Positions 4,446 through 14,481 of a stretch of DNA of 64,000 nucleotides are shown here, in pieces. The stretch covers positions 280,064-344,063 of IMG/VR virus record IMGVR_UViG_3300013936_000289, one strand, 5' to 3'. The notes beneath the pieces are model-generated. The model was not told where the DNA came from and ran no database searches. It saw only the letters and a program-made list of their open reading frames with translations. The first letter of the stretch is position 1, and every line of letters starts with the position of its first letter. Made by a program: the position numbers and the translations under genes. This DNA comes from a virus. Its lineage: Duplodnaviria > Heunggongvirae > Uroviricota > Caudoviricetes.

Positions 4446-4586
4446 AAATAAAAAATTAAGGTTTATACTCTGTGAGAACCTTATAACTCAGTACCAATAC
4501 GATGGTCTCCAAGACTTTCCACTAAAAATATTTAATGTTCTTGTAGTTACGATTCTATATAATTAAATATAGACTATTAAAATTTG

Positions 4587-4656
4587 TTCCTGTCTACGGA
4601 ATTAAACCGTAACCTTCACTTTTCAAGAGAAAATGCTTTCGTTACAACAAACAGGA
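4587..4656 (-). tRNA. degenerate tRNA-like gene, probable anticodon CTT (Lys)
   Basis: TCCTGTT/GACAGGA acceptor, TACGG-TTTAATT-CCGTA T arm, 6-bp anticodon stem with CTCTTGA loop, shortened D arm. Confidence 0.5.
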
Positions 4657-4778
4657 TGCAGTGTTTTATTGTACAATTATTATCACTGTCATTCATATTT
4701 CCTCATTTATAATATTACTTTATAGATACACAATCGCGAACAGTTATCCATATTCATAAAATAAATGCATCATACTAG

Positions 4779-4851
4779 TAGCGGGAGTGTGACTCGAACA
4801 CACGACCTCAGGGTTATGAGCCCTGCAAGCTACCAACTGCTCCATCCCGCA
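4779..4851 (-). tRNA. tRNA-fMet(CAT), copy 1
   Basis: CAGGG-CTCATAA-CCCTG with three G:C pairs, 1:72 mismatch. Confidence 0.92.
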
Positions 4852-4879
4852 ATATAAAAACATAAAAATAATAATGAAT

Positions 4880-5180
4880 TCATAGATGGATTCCTGACTA
4901 CCATCAAACCCTATTACATATTAAGCACATTATTCAGTCACGACAAGTTAGTTCATGACGCTAACTCCTAAATGTCGGAAGGATTGATTACCTTCAAAGG
5001 CTACAAGCATCATATACCATTCTACGATTTGACCTTTCTTACGTCACTCATGGTTGGCCAACCATGGCTATTTTAACCTTATGTTTCTTAATATTGATTA
5101 CTCTAAATCATATCTTTTCAGATATAACCTAAATGCCTTATCCACTGCTAACAGATTATTCAGCAATATAAAAACATTAT
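4880..5180 (-). ncRNA. candidate structured ncRNA between tRNA-Thr and tRNA-fMet
   Basis: No convincing ORF, locally raised GC, hairpins such as CATGGTTGG/CCAACCATG. Confidence 0.35.
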
Positions 5181-5192
5181 TAAGTTATGTTG

Positions 5193-5265
5193 AGCTGAAT
5201 GTCGGATTCGAACCAACGACCTACGCATTACAAGTGCGTCGCACTACCAACTGTGCTAATCCAGC
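5193..5265 (-). tRNA. tRNA-Thr(TGT)
   Basis: ACGCA-CTTGTAA-TGCGT anticodon arm, canonical D and T arms. Confidence 0.93.
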
Positions 5266-5346
5266 ATAAATTATTTCAACTTATTATTTATCTAATTTAT
5301 TTTTGAAATTGATAATAAAATAAGAAAATATTTTATATTATTATTG

Positions 5347-5427
5347 TACTCCTACTCGGACTCGAACCGAGACGTAATTAAACCTAGATCCTTAATCTAG
5401 TGGCTAGACCAATTCGCCTATAGGAGT
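5347..5427 (-). tRNA. tRNA-Leu(AAG)
   Basis: ACTCCTA/TAGGAGT acceptor, CTAGA-TTAAGGA-TCTAG anticodon arm, variable arm, A73. Confidence 0.88.
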
Positions 5428-5504
5428 ATTTAAAATTAATTTCATAAAGAAACTTTTTAATTTAATAACGTAAATTTAAAATCTTGTTTATTTTTAACTA
5501 TTTT

Positions 5505-6500
5505 TTATTTAAAAGTTTTTCTTCCTCTTATATAACCATTATTTATATATTCATCATATAATTCTGTTCTAATCATATGATTCTCTTTTTCATTATGAAC
5601 CCATACATAAGTATAATTTTTCAAATCTAATTTTGGATTATAACCATCATATAATTTAATAAAATCAGTACCATATGTATTTATTACATAATCTAAATAT
5701 GGTTTTATATCATCTTTATATAAAACTTTTACATCCGGATTCTAGTTTTCTTTTAATTTCCACTAATCTGTAGAATATCCTTTTATTTCTATTATCCCGT
5801 CATCTGTTATAAAATCAGGATAATATGAATGAACTTCATTATTCCAAATATAAGACCTTTTTTCTTTACAACGTTCTATATTTAAATTATGATCTTTATA
5901 ATAAACAAGAAATGCTAATTCCCATGAACTATCACAATGAATTCCTTTATACCATCCTTGTTTGCCTCTTCCAGAACCTTCTCGATAACCACCAGTATGT
6001 GCAGATAAATATTTGTGTTTACATTCTTTTGAACAATATGTTCTTCCTCTAATATTGCGTATATCAAACACAGAAAAATCTTTATTACAATATTTGCACT
6101 AATATATTTTTCTTGAACGTTCAGCAGCTATCTAACATTTAATAGAATTTTTTACACTAATAGATGTTTTCTTTTTTGATTCTTCTGTTCTTTTTGCTCT
6201 ATGTGAATTGCCATATGCAGTTGCACAATATCTATTACAAAATCTTCCAGAACCATAATAACCATCTATTACTTTACCACAATTCTCACAATATAAAACT
6301 TTACTTTCTTCAAATTGTTTCTATTGTAATAAATAATCATTCTTTATCTTATTATAATCTATATTACGTTTTCTAAATAATCGTAATAAAGTATTTCCAG
6401 ATTTATTATATTTCTTATCAACTGCTTTTAAAGAATAATTACAATTTCTATATTCCTATATTAATTCGTCATCTGATAAAAATTCTAAATTCTATTTCAT
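5505..6500 (-). CDS. free-standing PD-(D/E)XK (TnsA-like) putative homing endonuclease with Zn fingers, 331 aa (code 15)
   Basis: CENCGK..YGSGRFC Zn-finger; DSSWELAF...YYPDF...IIEIKG nuclease motif; joined across TAGs; starts 12 nt after tRNA-Glu. Confidence 0.75.
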
Positions 6501-6512
6501 ATTATTGATTAG

Positions 6513-6584
6513 TAGTGGGTAGGAGAGTCGAACTCCTGTTTAGAGAATGAAAATCTCTAGTACTAACCGCTATACGAACCCACC
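6513..6584 (-). tRNA. tRNA-Glu(TTC)
   Basis: AGAGA-TTTTCAT-TCTCT anticodon arm, canonical cloverleaf. Confidence 0.93.
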
Positions 6585-6684
6585 AGTTAATTTGCGTATC
6601 TTAATTATTTTCAATTCATAATTATTATATGTAATCTTTATAGTAAAGTCTATATATTTATCAAAAATATTTTCAAAATATTTG

Positions 6685-6788
6685 TGGGAACAACAGGATT
6701 CGAACACTGTGAAGCAAGATCATTTCAACCGATTTGCAAATGCACTCTACTTACCGTAGAGTTCTCATACCAACGAGAAGATATTCCC
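6685..6788 (-). ncRNA. 104-nt non-canonical tRNA-like RNA
   Basis: GGGAATA/TGTTCCC acceptor, D arm TTCTC-GTTGGTAT-GAGAA, T-loop TTCGAAT with bulged stem; no canonical 7-nt anticodon loop at the standard position. Confidence 0.55.
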
Positions 6789-6932
6789 AAATATTAAAAA
6801 ATTACCGTATATAAGAAGTTGCTTAGCCAACATCCATTATAATTTCCCTTATTGAAATATATATTAACCACGTGTATTAACATACTTCGTACAGTTACTA
6901 AAACCGCCTTTTTCTAAGAAGGCTCATGACGT

Positions 6933-7589
6933 TTATGGTAATTTATTTATATATTCTTTTAATTCTTTTGATTTATATGGTAAATCATATTTTTTACACC
7001 ATTTTTTAATGGCATTTCCTGTAATACCATATAATCTACCAATATTTTCAAATGTAATATATTTCTTAAATAATTGTATTAATTCTTCTTTTGTAGGAAT
7101 TGTATAATTTTTAATTGGTTCTATTTTTTCAACTAATTTTTTATAATCATTATTCCTATTTATAGAATCAAATTTAAATTTATTTAATAAAATATTAACA
7201 TTTTCTTCATCTTTTATAATTTCAGTTGGGCATTTTATTATATTAGCATGTATTTCTCTATGACAATTTGCGCATACTAAAATACATTTATCTAATTCTA
7301 ATTTAACATCATTCCATCCATGTGTATAACCTGCATATCCTATTCCAAACTCTTTTTTATTAGGATCTATATGGTGAAATTCTAATGCAGATATACATTT
7401 ATTATATCCACAACATTGACATTTATTTCCTTTATATGCAACTGATAATAATTTTAAATGTTCTCGACGTCGCTATACATATTCTGTCTAACATTTATTA
7501 CATACCCAATGTATTTTATTATTATATGTATATAAAGAAAATAATGTATTACCATGAATATGGCATATACGACATTCTTTTTCTCTCAT
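6933..7589 (-). CDS. HNH endonuclease with C-terminal HTH, 218 aa (code 15)
   Basis: CQCCGYNKCISALEFHHIDP...CILVCANCHREIH; two TAGs; starts 5 nt after interrupted tRNA-Asn. Confidence 0.85.
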
Positions 7590-7594
7590 ATTTG

Positions 7595-7809
7595 CGCTTC
7601 GAGTAGGACTCGAACCTACGACTTTCTGATTAGCTACATAAATTGGATTCGAACCAACTAAACTTTCAGCGATTTAGATTTATTACTATAATAGTTATAA
7701 ATCAATATTGCGTCCGCAAGTCTGATACCTAACAGCATTATGTAGTTTAATTTAATCAGGTTGTTTCCTGTATACAGTCAGACGTTCTAACCAACTGAAC
7801 TATCGAAGC
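7595..7809 (-). tRNA. tRNA-Asn(GTT) interrupted by a 141-nt insert (7633-7773) in the anticodon
   Basis: 5' exon GCTTCGATAGTTCAGTTGGTTAGAACGTCTGACTGT plus 3' exon TAATCAGAAAGTCGTAGGTTCGAGTCCTACTCGAAGCG gives a perfect 74-nt cloverleaf with the same anticodon arm as the intact Asn at 13125. Confidence 0.85.
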
Positions 7810-8144
7810 AAAATTTGAATAGTTTATCTACGGACACTATTCTTTTTATTCTAATATTCAGGCGTATACTTTACCGAGAAAACATATACTTCCTATATCA
7901 TGAAGTTTATTTTAATGGAACTACATATCATGATTAAAACCATATTCAACTCCTGAAACTAATTATCAATAGATTAAAATAATCTTTCAGTCTCTCTTAA
8001 ATATAAGGTTAAATTACTTATATTCATAATTATTTTTTAAATCTATTTATTTATAATTTAAATCAGCATATCATTACTAAAAGAAATAATTAAAACTTTT
8101 AATAATGGTCCGGACAATGCTATACTACTAACTCTCGTTATATA

Positions 8145-8441
8145 TTAAAAATGTAGATAAAATATAGATAATATTGAATAACATATTTTTCTGAATAATG
8201 TTTCATTATCTAAATCCACATCTTTTGTCTATTCCCTTTTTATATGCAAATCATAAAGAAGATTATGTGATCTCCATTCATTTATTAAACTATACATACT
8301 CCTTTTATGAATAACATAAGTTTTATCACATTTTTCACGTATACTATTAATAACACATTTCATGTTTTTAATAGATTTTATTTTATAACTATCAATTATT
8401 TTCACGTCTTCCTAACTGATAATTACTTCAGGATTAATCAT
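8145..8441 (-). CDS. hypothetical protein, 98 aa (code 15)
   Basis: Manual translation MINPEVIIS(Q)EDVKIID...EWRSHNLLYDLHIKRE(Q)TKDVDLD. Confidence 0.6.
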
Positions 8442-8486
8442 ATATAAAAATTAATTGTTTCATATATTTATCTTTAATCCATTATG

Positions 8487-8560
8487 TGATTCTGGTGAGG
8501 ATCAAACTCACGACCCGTGCTTTAGAAGAGCACTGCTCTGTTCAACTGAGCTACAGAACC
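8487..8560 (-). tRNA. tRNA-Arg(TCT)
   Basis: GTGCT-CTTCTAA-AGCAC; T-loop variant TTTGATC. Confidence 0.9.
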
Positions 8561-8756
8561 ATTCACCAAAATTATAAAAATCAGAAGTCATTTATTTTTA
8601 AGTATTTGAGTTTTCTTTTTCTAGTAAACATTATCATAATTATATATGTTTGCTGTATTGACTTCCATCATCATAAATAAACTTTCATAAACACTTATAT
8701 TTCTTACTAATTAAAGTCTCATCATAAGTCAAATACTTTAATTCATTTACAATTTG

Positions 8757-8830
8757 TACTACAGGAGGGACTTGAACCCCCGACCGCCAAGGTATAAGCT
8801 TGGAACTCTAACCGACTGAGTTACTGTAGT
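8757..8830 (-). tRNA. tRNA-Ile(TAT)
   Basis: CCAAG-CTTATAC-CTTGG anticodon arm, canonical cloverleaf, A73. Confidence 0.88.
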
Positions 8831-8922
8831 GTAATTTTTAAACTCTTATATTATATTCAATTTATAAGTAAATGTTTATATTTTTTAATAAATTAATTTT
8901 AGATATACTAATCAAGTTATAG

Positions 8923-8995
8923 TGTTCCGTACGAGACTCGAACTCGTTACCCCGATATTAAAAGTATCGTGCTCTGCCAGATGAGCTAACGGAAC
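8923..8995 (-). tRNA. tRNA-Lys(TTT)
   Basis: CGATA-CTTTTAA-TATCG. Confidence 0.93.
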
Positions 8996-9184
8996 AACTC
9001 TATATTTTAATTTACATAACTATTTTAATTACATTAAAAAGATACATCTTTTATTTTTATTTGTAATTAAAAAATATTTTATAAATTATTTTCTTTCATA
9101 TTTCAAAGAACTAAATTCATAATCTTATATGAATATAATATTTAAAAGTTTATATTATTAACAACTTTTTTATTAAATATTTGT

Positions 9185-9256
9185 TGGGTGGGTGAGACTT
9201 GAACTCACGACTTCATCCTTATCAGGGATGCGCTCTAACCATCTGAACTACCACCC
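9185..9256 (-). tRNA. tRNA-Ile(GAT)
   Basis: CATCC-CTGATAA-GGATG. Confidence 0.92.
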
Positions 9257-9262
9257 AAAATT

Positions 9263-9530
9263 AAACAAGTAGATTTACGAGACACAGACTTTTTCACCCT
9301 TTATATAAAGGAATACTCGCTATTAGGCACTTGCGCTGTTTTACGAAATTGTTGTGTGTCAACTTATGGCTTCTTACGAAATCTGCTGCTCTTCACATCT
9401 ATGAACTAATGTTCAAACCAATTCCTTTCAATAATTGACCTGTAACCCTTATCAGTTCTTCTGTCTATAAATTAGCTAGCATATAATTATAAACTTACTC
9501 ATTATTCTACTTGGAAGTCTATACTTGTTT
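9263..9530 (-). ncRNA. candidate ~270-nt structured ncRNA
   Basis: Closing helix AAACAAGTA/TACTTGTTT, internal long-range pairs AGATTT/AAATCT and GACACA/TGTGTC, no ORF. Confidence 0.5.
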
Positions 9531-9589
9531 ATATCATTATTAGATAATATACGACATTAAAACTGTAAAGTATATTTCTAATAATTATT

Positions 9590-10456
9590 TTATAATTTAT
9601 ATAAATCTGTTTCTTTATGTTCTAGTATTAATTTAACATTATATCCTAATTTTATATATTCATTAAATTTATCTTTCATATTCTAAATATCTAATGTATA
9701 ATTAGATTTTACTTCAACTAATAAATTTTTATTTGAAATATAAAAATCTGGTATTGCGCATCTATATTTCTATTTAATAGAATCATAATATTTTATTCTC
9801 TTACATTCAACATCATAATCAATTTGTTTTGAATCTAAATATAATGCATAATCTAATTCATATGTACTTCGTAAATATACTTTTTTATTATTCCATGTAA
9901 TATGATAGCAATCTTTACCTAATGTATGTGTGGGTCCTTTTAATTTACCATGTAAATATGATACTGTTGTTGATTCACTAAAATGTCGTATAGGAAAATT
10001 ATATGATTTAAATAGATGTAATAAAGTTTCAGAATTATTTATATATTTTTTACAATTATATTTAATATAAATATCTTTTGGTGATAATTGATTAATTACA
10101 TATTCAGTATATAATAAATCTTTAACTTTATTATATTCATCAACAAATTTTTTTGTATATAATGTATTAATATTTAATCCAAATGGTATTAATTTATTAA
10201 ACCATTTTGATGACTAATGTTTTGATATTTCAGGGTTTTCATTATTTAACTATAATGTACCGCAAAAATATTTTTTAATTTTTATATCATTTTTTATATT
10301 ATAATACCTTTTTAATGACTCTGATATTTTTTCTTTTGTTTCGTTAGATATTTTCCTATGTTTATTTGTATATGCACATCTACAACTTCCACAACAAAAT
10401 CGTCCAGAACCATAAATAGGTTTAATATAATATTTCCCACAATTTTCGCAATTCAT
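9590..10456 (-). CDS. free-standing PD-(D/E)XK (TnsA-like) putative homing endonuclease, 288 aa (code 15)
   Basis: MNCENCGK..YGSGRFC Zn finger; LRSTYELDYA...AIPDFY...LVEVKS; joined across TAGs; follows interrupted tRNA-Phe. Confidence 0.75.
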
Positions 10457-10508
10457 AATAAAATTAATTTTATTTATTCGAACTGTATATATGATTTTTC
10501 AGTTAAAG

Positions 10509-10669
10509 TGGACCCTTGTGGAATCGAACCACAACCCCTGGATTGTCTCTATAATTAGAGTCGAACTAATAATTTTATATCCATAAAATATAATATATAG
10601 AGATTAATTTTATACAGTTTATTCTGTTAATTCAGTCCAATGTACAGGCACCAGCCATACGCAAGGTCC
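10509..10669 (-). tRNA. tRNA-Phe(GAA) interrupted by an 86-nt insert (10545-10630) in the anticodon loop
   Basis: GGACCTT/AGGGTCC acceptor; TTGGA-CTGAA|AA-TCCAG after removing insert; TGTGG-TTCGATT-CCACA T arm. Confidence 0.82.
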
Positions 10670-10678
10670 ATTTAATAG

Positions 10679-10751
10679 TAGCGGGAGTGTGACTCGAACA
10701 CACGACCTTCGGGTTATGAGCCAGACAAGCTACCAACTGCTCCATCCCGCA
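10679..10751 (-). tRNA. tRNA-fMet(CAT), copy 2
   Basis: Identical to copy 1 except anticodon stem and variable region (TCTGG/CCCGA). Confidence 0.88.
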
Positions 10752-10791
10752 ATATAATATTTTTATTATTTTTAAATATTCACTAAAATCG

Positions 10792-10862
10792 TTGGACTAC
10801 CGGGATTCGGACCCAGTCTAGAAGAACCAAAATCTTCTGTACTACCATTATACTATAGTCCA
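10792..10862 (-). tRNA. tRNA-Gln(TTG)
   Basis: GAAGA-TTTTGGT-TCTTC; T-loop variant TCCGAAT. Confidence 0.9.
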
Positions 10863-10896
10863 ATGTTTCAATAAACATATCTAATAATATTCATAG

Positions 10897-11132
10897 CGGT
10901 TATAAATGGATTCGAACCATTAATCTCCCTCGACCCAGGGTATTCTATGAGTAAACGATAATTATTGTATTCTCTACTTACTCATAATATAAAAACTAAT
11001 AACGGTAAAAGAGCTTAAGAATAATACCATTTGATCCGCAAACATCTCATATTAGTTTTTATATTACTTCCAATAGATATTCATGTCAATTACCAGTTAT
11101 TAACTACTCCACCTATTTTGAACTATATAACC
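10897..11132 (-). ncRNA. 236-nt tRNA-like RNA with multi-helix insertion
   Basis: GGTTATA/TATAACC acceptor, AATGG-TTCGAAT-CCATT T arm, D-like arm; internal helices ATAAAAACTAATA/TATTAGTTTTTAT and ATGAGTAA/TTACTCAT. Confidence 0.6.
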
Positions 11133-11141
11133 AAATTTTTG

Positions 11142-11216
11142 CGGTGCGTACGGAACTCGAATCCGTGACCTCTACAGTGACAGTGTAGCATTCTGACCAA
11201 ACTGAACTAACGCACC
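11142..11216 (-). tRNA. tRNA-Asp(GTC)
   Basis: CTACA-CTGTCAC-TGTAG, G73. Confidence 0.93.
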
Positions 11217-11238
11217 ATATCTTAACTTACATAACTAA

Positions 11239-11655
11239 TTATCTTTCTGGATGATAATAATCTTTCCAATTATTAAATGTATTTTTAATAGATAAACTTT
11301 GTAAATAATCTATTGAATAGCATTTATTCGTATGTATCATTCTATGATGATTTGGACATACAATAATTAAATTAGAAATATCATCAGTTCCACCATTAGA
11401 TTTTTCTATTATATGATGAATATCACAAGTAGATTCATTCCACCCACATATTGCACATCCTATTTTTGAACGTTTCAATATTTTAGATATTGTTCTTTTA
11501 GAACAATCTAATATACTATTTAATTCATTTTCTTTAGAATGTTTACGTTTTTGTTTACATTCATCACATTTTATATGTCTATCTTTTCTAAAAGTCTTAG
11601 TAGAATAAAACTTTTTATTACAAGATTCACATATATATTCTTTTAATTCTGACAT
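11239..11655 (-). CDS. HNH endonuclease, 138 aa (true start MSELKEY)
   Basis: CAICGWNESTCDIHHII...NLIIVCPNHHRMIH; the longer ORF-track start would run through tRNA-Tyr. Confidence 0.85.
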   Translation of the reverse strand: MSELKEYICESCNKKFYSTKTFRKDRHIKCDECKQKRKHSKENELNSILDCSKRTISKILKRSKIGCAICGWNESTCDIHHIIEKSNGGTDDISNLIIVCPNHHRMIHTNKCYSIDYLQSLSIKNTFNNWKDYYHPER

Positions 11656-11660
11656 ATTTG

Positions 11661-11743
11661 TGGGTGAGGTAGGACTCGAACCTACGAAGTCAAATGACAG
11701 CTGATTTACAGTCAGCCCCCTTTGCCACTCGGGACACTCACCC
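11661..11743 (-). tRNA. tRNA-Tyr(GTA)
   Basis: GCTGA-CTGTAAA-TCAGC, long variable arm, A73. Confidence 0.93.
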
Positions 11744-11748
11744 AAAAT

Positions 11749-11855
11749 TAATGAAATATACAAAAGGAATTGAACCTTTTAATACTCTTATAGCTTACCG
11801 GCTTTACGGTATTTTAATAGCACGCCCTTGCCCTGTGGGATAATATATTTCATTA
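11749..11855 (-). ncRNA. tRNA-like RNA with extended acceptor helix
   Basis: TAATGAAATATA/TATATTTCATTA terminal helix, AAAGG-TTCAATT-CCTTT T arm, CCC/GGG D-like arm, TACCG/CGGTA hairpin. Confidence 0.45.
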
Positions 11856-12073
11856 AATTTTACCTGAAACATTCACCGCTGCCCGTTCACCTATAGGATT
11901 TAAAATAGGTTCTAACCAGAATGAAATTAACATACGCCTTCAAATATATTTTATATTTAGACTTAATAATATATTCTACATGTTTACTTTAATTCATTTA
12001 TTTAATAAGTAATTAAGTATATTGTCTAATAATATAGTTTAATCCTTATTACTGTAATGTTTCACACCTAGCG

Positions 12074-12147
12074 TGGAGATAATGGTACTCGAAACCATGA
12101 CCCTCTGCGTGCAAAGCAGATGCTCTAGCCAACTGAGCTATACCCCC
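12074..12147 (-). tRNA. tRNA-Ala(TGC)
   Basis: TCTGC-TTTGCAC-GCAGA, G3:U70. Confidence 0.93.
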
Positions 12148-12203
12148 AATTTATAGAGATTTAGATAATACCCTATAAAATTCTTTTGAGTTAAAAACAA
12201 TAT

Positions 12204-12417
12204 TTAGATATTTAACTTAATAACATATATAAATTTTATAATATATATGAAGTTAACCTTAAAAACTATATATTAACTATATAGAAAAATAATTATCTAA
12301 ATCTTATCTTTTTAAAAATATGAATTTATTTAATTTTTACATACATAATTTATAAATTAAATTCTTCTAACGACTCAATTCATAAATACTCAATATATAA
12401 AACATAAATATCTTCAT
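12204..12417 (-). repeat. dispersed ~213-bp repeat, copy 1 (copy 2 at 60711-60923, +)
   Basis: Reverse complement aligns through long shared blocks such as TTTAAAAAGATAAGATTTAGATAATTAT and ATATGTTATTAAGTTAAATATCTAA. Confidence 0.85.
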
Positions 12418-12486
12418 ATTTTATGATTCAATATTTATATTGAATAAACATATAAAAGTCTATTTAAATTATAAATATTTTTATTA

Positions 12487-12691
12487 GTTGTCTTGATGGA
12501 TTCGAACACACCTTTATCCTTACAATACATACTTCAATTTTCGCTTCACTAATCATCTTTCACTCCAGTTCCATTTTGCACACTGCACTCGCAGTTAATG
12601 CTCCTTTCCCCTTATCTATATTTCATTTTCATACCTCGTTACTTCTCTTTTCTTTAGGACCATAGTAATACCATGTCTATACGAAAGACAA
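12487..12691 (-). ncRNA. 205-nt tRNA-like RNA with purine-rich insertion
   Basis: TTGTCTT/AAGACAA acceptor, GTA/TAC D stem, bulged T arm GGTGTG-TTCGAAT-CCATC as in the 6685 element. Confidence 0.5.
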
Positions 12692-12701
12692 ACCCAAAAG
12701 G

Positions 12702-12774
12702 TAGATGGTAAGAGATTCGAACTCCTGACAGCTCGGATGTAAGCCGAGAACTCTAACCACTGAGTTAACCATCT
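12702..12774 (-). tRNA. tRNA-Val(TAC)
   Basis: CTCGG-CTTACAT-CCGAG. Confidence 0.93.
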
Positions 12775-13124
12775 AAATCTAGTATACTGCTTTCACAAGT
12801 GGTATACTATAATAAAAATTTAATTTAAATTAAAAATAAGATTAAATAACTAACAGGGTGGAGTTGCACTTCCCTTACTTCATAGTTGCAATACGCAGTG
12901 ATGAACCCTTCTTTTTAAGAAATAAAAGAAATAGCGCTGTTTTTATTTCTTAAATTGTTTAACCCTTACTTTAACGTAAGACTTCATTTACCGTTAAACT
13001 ACGTTATTATTTAATCAATCATCAAAAAACATATTCAGAAACATTATATATCTCCGCCTTGACGGTATCATCTGAATTTGAAAGGTACGAGCCTTCATAT
13101 ATAAAATGTTATGTTTTTAACTTG

Positions 13125-13195
13125 CGGGTACTGAGGGAATCGAACCCACGTCTTCTGATTAACAGTCAGATGCTTGACCTTCCAGCTAAATACCC
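13125..13195 (-). tRNA. tRNA-Asn(GTT), uninterrupted
   Basis: TCTGA-CTGTTAA-TCAGA, G73. Confidence 0.92.
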
Positions 13196-13849
13196 AAATA
13201 TAACTTTAAAGTCAGTTAACTACACATCCGACCGTTACAGTGACACTTCTTATTCTTATAAGATTTATGTATATAACCAAACATTAGCTTGAGTCGTTCA
13301 TTTGTTCTATTCAGCTCGTGGAGATATATCTTTTTGAAAGCAATAGCAATATTAAAAGGACTTTAATATTCTATATATATCTCCTGATGCACTTTGGACA
13401 AGCAGTCTAATATAAGAAATCTTATATAGAGCCTGATATTTTTCAATCATATTTTTCTTTGGCAGCATCATTATTATAAATTCATATAGTTATGTTTGTT
13501 TCCTCACATAAACAATAATGAAATTATTTATGAAGTTACTTTTAAATTTGAAGTTCAATATTATATCTGATTAACTTCTCAGTAACATTAAACATAACAT
13601 ATATTATATGAATAATTTCTATATTTGTCTATCAAAATTTCAAAGAACTTTATTTTTTAATTACAATTCAAAGATACATCTTTATTTTGAATTAAAAAAT
13701 ATTCTAAGAAAAATTTTCAAAAAATTATTTTCTTATTTTGTTATCAATATTTCAAAGAACAATTTTTGTTTGTTATTTTATTAACAATACAAAGATACAT
13801 AATATATTTCAAATAAAAAAATTTGTCTGATAAAAAATCAAAAATATTT

Positions 13850-14098
13850 TTATTTAATCTTTATTATAGTATCATTATCTATAGAACGTCTAATCCATCT
13901 CATAAGAATAAGTGCTCTATCATAATGTGGTAAGAATGCTGCTGTTTCACCTACATCATGTTTATCTGATAAATCTATTTCTATCTAATATATATGATTA
14001 TCATCTGATGTAATGTTATAAACAACAATACCACCTGAATTTACACAAACAATGTCTGCTGTACCCTTAACTAAAGATTTTAAATTAATCTTTTCCAT
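13850..14098 (-). CDS. hypothetical protein, 82 aa (code 15)
   Basis: MEKINLKSLVKGTADIVCVNSGG...HIY(Q)IEIDLSDKHDVGETA...LMRWIRRSID. Confidence 0.7.
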
Positions 14099-14123
14099 TT
14101 TTCTAATTTAATTTATTTTTTAG

Positions 14124-14198
14124 TTGGGGTGGTGGGAGTTGAACCCACTACCAGTATTCTTAATAAGAATACCACTCTGACCGTTGAGTTACACCCCA
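14124..14198 (-). tRNA. atypical tRNA with extended anticodon arm (6-bp stem, TTATTAA loop; apparent anticodon ATT)
   Basis: TGGGGTG/CACCCCA acceptor, canonical D and T arms, anticodon arm 2 nt longer than standard. Confidence 0.65.
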
Positions 14199-14390
14199 CT
14201 ATGGAGTGTTCCTAAATATAATACAACAATATATCATTAAACATATAGGAACATGATTTCTTATGTCAATCCTATATATAATAATGTATAATATAAGATC
14301 AACAATTTATAACTGTATTCGATGCTTATGTATATGTCGTATTAACTTTGTCATATTATTCTTATTTTATTTGTATAAATTTTTAATTTG

Positions 14391-14481
14391 CACACAGAGA
14401 AGGATTCGAACCCTCGAACAGTACATATATACCGTTATTGGTTTTGGAGACCAACTGCATCAACCACTCGCACATCTGTGT
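14391..14481 (-). tRNA. type-II (Ser-like body) tRNA with Trp anticodon CCA
   Basis: ACACAGA/TCTGTGT acceptor, G73, TTGGT-CTCCAAA-ACCAA, ~20-nt variable hairpin. Confidence 0.85.

Follow-up and report, generated by a model that had tools for sequence, protein, structure and literature searches.

A tRNA-like insert in the anticodon loop of a Lak megaphage tRNA-Asn gene, and the family to which it belongs

The interrupted tRNA-Asn gene of a Lak-B megaphage

We analysed a stretch of 64,000 nucleotides (nt) from the IMG/VR virus record IMGVR_UViG_3300013936_000289 (positions 280,064 to 344,063 of that record; hereafter the window), and within it a transfer RNA (tRNA) gene at 7595-7809 on the minus strand that is interrupted by a 141-nt insert itself shaped like a tRNA. 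The window comes from a Prevotella Lak-B megaphage: the 600 bases round the insert are 99.5% identical to Lak-B4, B7 and B8, and Lak-A1, A2 and C1 match them in two pieces at ~80% identity. The G+C content of the window is 26%, and its minus strand has an array of 18 tRNA genes, which together occupy 4586-14481. ARAGORN makes no call at 7595-7809 in the raw window and returns a 75-nt tRNA-Asn(gtt) once 7633-7773 is removed. Read from 7809 down to 7595, the gene consists of a 36-nt exon 1 ending in UCUGA-CUGU, the 141-nt insert, and an exon 2 that runs from UAA-UCAGA to G73. Exon 1 (7774-7809, minus strand; tRNA positions 1-35) provides the 5' strand of the acceptor stem, the D arm, the 5' strand of the anticodon stem and the loop bases C32, U33, G34 and U35. 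Exon 2 (7595-7632, minus strand; positions 36-73) begins with U36, A37 and A38 and provides the 3' strand of the anticodon stem, the variable loop, the T arm and the 3' strand of the acceptor stem up to G73, with a C following at 7594. Both exons were delimited by ARAGORN on the spliced sequence and by the uninterrupted orthologue of Lak-A1, A2 and C1.

In the alignment with Lak-A1, A2 and C1, the exon ends of this orthologue abut as GACTGT/TAATCAGA. The junction in the empty allele is CTGT/TAATC, between anticodon positions 35 and 36. Since this is the only pair of cut points that reproduces the empty allele of Lak-A and Lak-C, the comparison of alleles identifies the interrupted gene as tRNA-Asn(GUU), with its anticodon split between 35 and 36. 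Two other readings of the anticodon were rejected, because they fail to give the empty allele and are artefacts of a preset intron position: GCT, returned by ARAGORN in its intron mode, and GTA, given by tRNAscan and in Table S6 of Devoto et al. 2019 (PMC6784885). The window also carries an uninterrupted tRNA-Asn(GUU) paralogue at 13124-13195 on the minus strand. A first-pass annotation made from the window alone had preferred GTT over GCT and GTA, in part on account of this paralogue, and had proposed a search for empty alleles in related genomes; the precise empty alleles of Lak-A1, A2 and C1 now settle the choice in its favour. Its placing of the insert at 7633-7773 (141 nt) was likewise correct, on the minus strand.

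The insert is already known, and was mistyped in publication. Devoto et al. 2019 (PMC6784885) described Lak tRNAs with 'enigmatic introns', none of them matching Rfam, and wrote that the Thr intron 'may itself encode a tRNA'. Table S6 of that paper lists, for genomes B1 and B9, a 215-nt 'tRNA Tyr (GTA)' with a 141-nt intron, and its sequence is identical to window 7595-7809. The paper also recorded a shorter relative in A1, A2 and C1 and the presence/absence polymorphism, counted one tRNA intron in the B-Lak genomes and offered no mechanism. In a 2026 survey of jumbo phages, introns of this kind were again described as common and as ones that 'could encode another tRNA'; in the literature on these tRNA introns we found no paper giving a mechanism of removal. 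The first-pass proposal of a new intron class was therefore mistaken as to novelty, the same sequence standing among the published 'enigmatic' introns. The host gene and the junction are corrected here: the paper has Tyr(GTA) with a canonical 37/38 intron, two bases off, whereas the empty allele gives Asn(GUU) and 35/36. Where the paper counts one B-Lak intron, the window holds a second, in a tRNA-Phe gene. The shared architecture, the fixed spacing that we call the 13+1 rule, the coincidence with C74 and the covariation, all described below, are also added to the published account. Because the insert was already published, the value of this work lies in a corrected annotation and a sharper hypothesis, and not in discovery.

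The insert (7633-7773, minus strand), delimited by presence and absence against Lak-A and Lak-C, is the long B-lineage form of the Asn type of what we refer to as the Lak tRNA-intron family. At its 5' junction the bases A-U-A precede a leader hairpin, CAGG-AAACAA-CCTG (intron nt 4-17; 7757-7770), which forms in both the minimum-energy and the centroid folds. An A/U linker, ATTAAATTAAA (intron nt 18-28; 7746-7756), is single-stranded in all folds and connects the hairpin to the tRNA mimic. The mimic opens with the 5' strand of the inner acceptor stem, C(-1)-TACATAA (intron nt 29-36; 7738-7745), which pairs with 7634-7641 and takes part in an invariant stack of 13 base pairs (bp). It continues with an inner D arm, CTG-TTAGGTAT-CAG (7722-7735), whose loop has the GG expected at positions 18 and 19. 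The anticodon arm is replaced by a variable arm (7659-7721), defined by alignment and fold, with ACTT/AAGT at its base; it is ~48 nt longer than in the 93-nt form found in Lak-A and is without a 7-nt anticodon loop. The inner T arm, GTTGG-TTCGAAT-CCAAT (7642-7658), in which four of the five T-stem pairs covary, leads into the 3' strand of the inner acceptor stem, TTATGTA, then G73, which pairs with C(-1), and C74, the last base of the intron (7633-7641); 13 paired nt lie between the T loop and this terminal C. The mimic has the coaxial stack of acceptor and T stems, the consensus T loop and the D-loop GG that make a tRNA elbow. Compared with shuffled sequences, the whole 215-nt precursor folds with a z-score of -2.83, and in its centroid structure the outer acceptor stem and T arm, the leader hairpin, and the inner acceptor stem and T arm coexist. 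Every element listed in the first-pass annotation (hairpin, linker, acceptor, D arm, T arm, G73-C74) is present, and all of them recur in the eight other members of the family.

A shared plan and a patchy distribution

Nine distinct introns were gathered from Devoto Table S6, four whole Lak genomes, the window and IMG/VR. Their host genes are tRNA-Asn (introns of 141, 129 and 93 nt), tRNA-Phe (79 and 86 nt), tRNA-Thr (114 nt, in two variants) and tRNA-Gly (87 and 84 nt), and the junctions always fall in the anticodon loop, at 35/36 or 36/37. All nine begin with a leader of 27-31 nt that starts W-U-A-(A)-C-A and forms a hairpin of 4-6 bp with a 6-nt A-rich loop. The 5' junction is found at the foot of this hairpin, 7-8 nt ahead of the hexaloop, in every member. 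After the hairpin come 8-12 A/U-rich single-stranded bases (9/9); here the Thr and Gly types have a related (A)AAUUAAA motif, and the Phe types read AAAUCAA or AAAUUAA. The tRNA-like body, again in all nine, is made up of an acceptor helix, a D arm with a GG loop, a middle part and a T arm. The T loop is UUCGNNU throughout, in the form UUCGAWU in six members, UUCGUUU in the two Thr variants and UUCGACU in the Phe intron of the B lineage. The middle part is the element that varies in size: the Phe and Gly types lack it, the 93-nt Asn form has a short hairpin and the Thr type a 9-bp GAGA hairpin, it reaches ~60 nt in the window copy, and the copy on L236, a Lak-like contig in IMG/VR, differs from these in its length.

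The distance from the T loop to the terminal C is exactly 13 nt, all of them paired, in 9/9 members (the 13+1 rule). With a 5-bp T stem, these 13 nt correspond to a 7-bp acceptor stem plus the -1:73 pair, after which C74 follows. The Asn, Thr and Gly types allow a sixth T-stem pair; the acceptor then counts 7 pairs and the total stays at 13. In the alignment of the family, all 102 cells of the 12 pairs scored in the acceptor and T helices are standard pairs, nine of the 12 pairs change on both sides, and none of 500 shuffles reaches the score. When the registers are slid, 28-55% of cells pair. The four inner pairs of the leader hairpin behave in the same way, with 24/24 cells paired and all four pairs changed on both sides. 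The leader of the Asn type has one change in 29 nt among its three forms, compared to ~16% in the exons. This low rate of change, together with the covariation of the stem across types, indicates that the leader is more than a spacer. The first-pass annotation had named covariation across related phages as a check on its reading, and it is found in the acceptor helix, the T helix and the leader stem alike. The mimic of the Thr intron in Lak-A1 (contig L007, 22370-22451) scores 30.4 bits against the Rfam tRNA model and is called tRNA-His(atg) by ARAGORN. It probably does not serve in decoding, because a 9-bp hairpin closed by a GAGA tetraloop is the better fold for its 'anticodon arm'.

With the insert by itself as query, BLAST revealed a 93-nt relative in Lak-A1, A2 and C1, ~6.5 kilobases from their empty Asn gene. 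This relative interrupts the other tRNA-Asn(GUU) paralogue, at the identical junction CTGT/TAATC. The shared parts of the 141-nt and 93-nt introns are 97% identical, compared to ~80% for the neighbouring DNA, and the two host genes differ throughout. Presence and absence are reciprocal between the paralogues: Lak-B has the intron in copy 1, the gene at 7595-7809, and Lak-A and Lak-C have it in the orthologue of the gene that is uninterrupted in the window, at 13124-13195. The copy-1 orthologue of contig L236 carries the 129-nt form. The second interrupted gene of the window is a tRNA-Phe(GAA) at 10509-10669 on the minus strand, in which an 86-nt family member (10545-10630) separates positions 36 and 37. 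It is missed by ARAGORN and by the Rfam tRNA model, and its Lak-A1 orthologue has a diverged 79-nt copy of the intron. A search for sequencing runs that contain the locus listed no RNA run, and DNA contigs of four runs were compared with it. Runs X2 and X4 carry the intron-bearing allele, and a contig of run X1 (record 5 on window 7628-7836) has the 93-nt Asn form, with 51 nt skipped and three other letters. Its exons match neither Lak-A nor Lak-B exactly, which suggests a further variant of the host gene. Some run contigs show an uninterrupted tRNA-Asn with mismatches; these are other genes and not the spliced product.

Searches beyond the Lak genomes relied on patterns and on structure. Tighter exact patterns run over IMG/VR, which miss diverged members, returned only the Lak-like contigs L090, L236 and L286; an exact pattern of the Phe type, from which diverged members would likewise escape, had no match there, and loose exact patterns gave mostly chance matches. 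An exact-pattern scan of 185,579 prokaryote genomes, also blind to diverged members, gave 14 matches, all due to chance, and a search of 2.4 Mb of loci for the structure of a nested tRNA mimic returned the known family only. The family is mobile, free of open reading frames and, within the searches made, confined to Lak megaphages. Collectively, we consider it very probable that the inserts are a family of structured, mobile, intron-like elements.

The sequence AAATTAAAC is not enriched in the window (6 found, compared to 4.6 expected) and was rejected as a general phage signal. A leader-like hairpin, TACAAT-GAAAAT-ATTG followed by AAAAAAAATTAAAC, occurs in three IMG/VR contigs of 21-23% G+C from other AT-rich phages (L132:4384-4507, L287 and L289). 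There it stands ~50 nt upstream of a free-standing tRNA with the anticodon TCC, apparently a tRNA-Gly, and it may be a chance resemblance or a common 5' signal of phage tRNA genes.

Several endonuclease-like genes lie within the tRNA array. A clear HNH gene at 6933-7589 on the minus strand (phrog_2255, E-value 2.5e-31) lies 5 nt after the tRNA-Asn gene. It was considered as the partner of the intron and rejected: the gene stands beside interrupted and empty alleles alike, adjoining the empty allele of Lak-A as well, and so cannot be tied to the intron. A second HNH gene (11239-11763, minus strand) sits behind tRNA-Tyr. Two further minus-strand reading frames, 5505-6500 and 9590-10456, have a common CENCGK..YGSGRFC zinc finger and a weak endonuclease domain and are found directly behind tRNA genes; searched against Pfam, PHROGs, NCBIfam and PDB sequences, they gave only weak endonuclease hints. 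Two other features of the array concern unusual tRNAs. The ARAGORN call at 14123-14198 (minus strand) is a tRNA-Asn whose anticodon, ATT, is unusual; the Devoto tables have Asn ATT or Ile AAT there, depending on the B genome. At 10897-11132 (minus strand) there is a tRNA-shaped RNA of ~236 nt, with an acceptor stem GGTTATA/TATAACC, a T arm AATGG-TTCGAAT-CCATT and ~170 nt in the place of the anticodon arm. It has no Rfam match and does not follow the leader-plus-mimic plan.

Selection on the interrupted genes and the probable removal of the intron

The interrupted genes are under continued structural selection as tRNAs. Between the tRNA-Asn gene of the window and the copy-1 orthologue on contig L236, there are compensatory double changes at 11:24, 27:43 and 29:41, and no disruptive change. 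Between the tRNA-Phe genes of the A and B lineages, there is a compensatory change at 49:65 and a change from C-G to U-G at 27:43. No uninterrupted Phe anticodon arm was found in Lak-B4 or Lak-A1, and the published Lak tRNA table has no Phe row. Because the interrupted genes keep evolving as tRNAs, removal of the intron from the RNA can be argued, though not proven, and on this comparison of sequences we regard removal at the RNA level as likely.

The first-pass annotation had seen no sign of a group I core or a bulge-helix-bulge, and the family as a whole agrees with it. Rfam cmscan of 7400-8000, at E-values up to 10, returned no intron or ribozyme family, and the insert on its own matched no Rfam family, its half-tRNA matches, at 18.7 and 13.7 bits, being below threshold. 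A group I intron was rejected: there is no match to a P3-P9 core, the introns measure 79-141 nt, and all nine end in C instead of G. The base before the 5' junction is U in the Asn and Thr types, C in the Gly type and A in the Phe type, and not the U of group I introns throughout. A group II intron was rejected too, as the introns start W-U-A-C-A and end AGC or GAC, and not GUGYG/AY, and have no Rfam match. The terminal C, the variable end of the 5' exon and the length of 79-141 nt together exclude a core of group I or group II. For a bulge-helix-bulge, one or two of the four central pairs are possible in each of the eight precursors tested, the flanking helices are absent, and the bases that would pair on the 3' side are already engaged in the covarying acceptor helix; this candidate was dropped. 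Pairing between the end of exon 1 and the leader, as a guide, was also looked at. It reads CUGU/ACAG in the Asn type and UUGU/ACAA in the Thr type, has only 3 bp, in another register, in the Phe and Gly types, and was judged not significant.

The enzymes that could act on such a precursor were sought in Lak-B4 and Lak-A1. In these two genomes the EndA domain tRNA_int_endo (PF01974) and RtcB (PF01139) gave no match, with the controls matched, and neither an RNase Z-type metallo-beta-lactamase nor RNase P RNA was found. A host-type Bacteroides used as control has RtcB, an RNase Z-type enzyme and RNase P RNA, and lacks EndA. Since the phage encodes neither, RNase Z and RNase P activities would need to be supplied by the host. 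Both Lak genomes contain several reading frames of the RNA-ligase family (PF09414), and the phage also encodes a CCA-adding-type enzyme. The T4 Rnl1 family (PF09511) had no match in a search in which the positive control was unmatched too. T4 Rnl2 is annotated in Lak by Devoto et al. 2019 (PMC6784885).

The ends of ordinary Lak tRNA genes were examined in 37 genes from the window and Lak-A1. RNase P, RNase Z and the CCA-adding enzyme all read the tRNA elbow together with a stack of fixed length. In 36 of the 37 genes, position 74 is C and the next base is A or T, in no case another C, and the CCA end is not encoded; a T able to pair with the discriminator stands at -1 in 29 of the 37. The uniform N73-C74 flank gives a hint about the trimming of these tRNAs. 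The intron has the same N73-C74 landmark at its 3' end, and the first bases of exon 2, (U)AA, resemble the usual A/T-rich trailer. The first-pass annotation had suggested that RNase P and RNase Z act on the inner fold and that the exons are then ligated. Of this, the 3' part survives in so far as the 3' junction, after C74, lies near a tRNA-end landmark, and it is the only junction that coincides with one; a cut at the end of the stack would account for it if the enzyme acts after C74 rather than after N73. The 5' part does not, as the 5' junction is 28 nt upstream of the mimic. In the family the two junctions depart from the expected processing sites by 27-31 nt at the 5' end and by one base at the 3' end. 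RNase P and RNase Z alone cannot produce these junctions, because after an RNase P cut exon 1 would still carry the leader hairpin and the linker; a canonical RNase Z cut after N73 would in addition leave C74 on exon 2.

We tentatively propose, giving it a little less than an even chance, that the intron is removed by tRNA end-processing enzymes and a ligase, that is, by proteins and not by self-splicing. The intron would mark its own ends by structure, with the foot of the leader hairpin as the 5' mark and the base just past the 13-bp stack as the 3' mark. The 3' cut would be made by the endonuclease that trims ordinary Lak tRNA 3' ends, an enzyme of the RNase Z type supplied by the host, which would read the elbow and the end of the helix. 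As RNase P misses the 5' junction, and the leader is conserved with the junction at the foot of its hairpin, a second, structure-specific endonuclease is proposed to cut there. A candidate is an enzyme of the RNase E/G type, as the cut would always fall before W-U-A in a single-stranded A/U context. During excision the exons would be kept together by the acceptor and anticodon stems of the outer tRNA, and the break would be sealed by a phage Rnl2-like ligase or by host RtcB. If the RNA is spliced, the product would be a joined tRNA-Asn reading GACUGU-UAAUCAGA. As a geometric conjecture, the leader hairpin may stack on the end of the acceptor helix, so that the two junctions face each other. 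Removal at the RNA level, the enzymes and the end chemistry are all things that we infer from sequence.

Several points weigh against this proposal. Splicing is unproven and is deduced from DNA. Each genome keeps one intact tRNA-Asn(GUU), and so the interrupted copy could in principle be dispensable. The near-identity of the intron across lineages could mean that it spread recently, which would have left little time for exon decay in some of the comparisons. With a leader of 28 nt, RNase P cannot make the 5' cut. Textbook RNase Z cuts after N73 and not after C74. The model would also lean on host enzymes, the phage encoding neither an RNase Z-type enzyme nor RNase P RNA.

Alternatively, the insert may be selfish DNA that is never removed, the dead tRNA-Asn being tolerated thanks to the paralogue and the host, and the fold reflecting an origin as a tRNA cassette. 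One intact tRNA-Asn(GUU) is kept in every lineage, the phage has no gene for a splicing endonuclease, tRNA end-processing does not account for the leader, and the HNH and other endonuclease genes within the tRNA array could drive mobility at the DNA level. A dead copy is harder to square with outer stems that show compensatory and no disruptive changes between the intron-bearing lineages, or with the Phe intron, which is common to the A and B lineages with its exons intact and no other Phe gene found. Insertion always in the anticodon loop, at 35/36 or 36/37, in four tRNAs that have no DNA target in common, is the signature of an intron and not of random insertion. We give this explanation a small but real chance. 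That the released mimic is itself the useful product, either a CCA-tailed decoy against host defences that target tRNAs or a timer of tRNA supply, with the host tRNA as a carrier or kept latent, seems to us improbable. The first-pass annotation had likewise offered, as its alternative reading, that the insert may keep the tRNA latent or shield it from anticodon nucleases. It would fit the retention of the features used by RNase P, 3' trimming and CCA-adding enzymes in a mimic that has no anticodon arm, as well as the phage CCA-adding-type enzyme and the timing by recoding that is a known theme in these phages. However, four diverged mimics in four tRNAs have no conserved loop for a specific decoy, their variable arm ranges from nothing to ~60 nt, and the selection seen on the outer tRNA means that the carrier, too, is important.

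The chemistry could also differ from that proposed. The leader, linker and tRNA-like scaffold might form a new and very small self-splicing or self-cleaving RNA, with the exons joined by a ligase or by the RNA itself. A leader more conserved in sequence than the exons, an A-rich loop and linker kept across types, and junctions that both lie at helix ends that may be able to stack speak for such a ribozyme. Nevertheless, nothing in Rfam matches at E-values up to 10, the conserved unpaired bases are nearly all A or U in a genome of 26% G+C, and the strongly conserved tertiary motifs are those of the tRNA elbow only. The base before the 5' junction varies as well (U, U, C and A in the four types), and the last base is C and not the G of group I, which makes a ribozyme unlikely. 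Splicing of the archaeal and eukaryal kind, in which an EndA-like enzyme cuts a bulge-helix-bulge and RtcB ligates the halves, has in its favour the RtcB of host-type Bacteroides. Its geometry fails in 8/8 precursors, and Lak-B4 and Lak-A1 are without tRNA_int_endo and RtcB; this route is scarcely credible.

Relation to known RNA processing

Plant mitochondrial t-elements, the MALAT1 mascRNA and mitochondrial tRNA punctuation all use an embedded stack of acceptor and T arm with an elbow as a handle for RNase P and RNase Z. The Lak intron is like them in placing an elbow stack, with or without an anticodon arm, in a longer transcript. It differs in that t-elements and mascRNA mark the ends of transcripts, with no ligation of the flanks, whereas the flanks of the Lak intron are tRNA halves to be rejoined. 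Its 5' junction, unlike the site at which t-elements and mascRNA are processed, is not at the 5' end of the mimic. Bacterial tRNA introns of group I are found in cyanobacterial tRNA-Leu(UAA) and, at ~205 nt, in Azoarcus tRNA-Ile. They and the Lak introns alike occupy the anticodon loop of a bacterial-type tRNA, are mobile and vary in presence among relatives. In contrast to group I, the Lak introns have no P3-P9 core, measure 79-141 nt, end in C and do not always follow a U. In phage T4, the anticodon loop is cut by PrrC and repaired by Pnkp and Rnl1, and Rnl2 seals nicks. The proposed Lak pathway would resemble this repair in that a phage RNA ligase reseals a break in the anticodon loop with the halves held by the tRNA body, and Lak encodes Rnl2-like ligases. 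The difference is that T4 mends a single cut inflicted by the host, from which no segment is removed.

To our knowledge, bacteria are thought to splice tRNAs only by means of self-splicing group I introns. It is conceivable, at a lower confidence than we give to protein-based removal itself, that Lak megaphages have a third route of tRNA splicing, beside group I self-splicing and the bulge-helix-bulge/EndA route, in which the mimic recruits end-trimming, the leader directs a cut, a phage ligase joins the exons, and reversal of the reaction or homing at the DNA level spreads the intron. If true, a virus of bacteria would splice tRNAs with the help of proteins guided by tRNA shape, and RNA processing would gain a new branch. 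The failure of standard gene finders to detect some tRNAs of huge phages, or to type them correctly, would then be explained too, as with the Asn gene published as Tyr and the Phe gene that went uncounted. Such mistyping matters for how codon use and TAG recoding in Lak megaphages are read.

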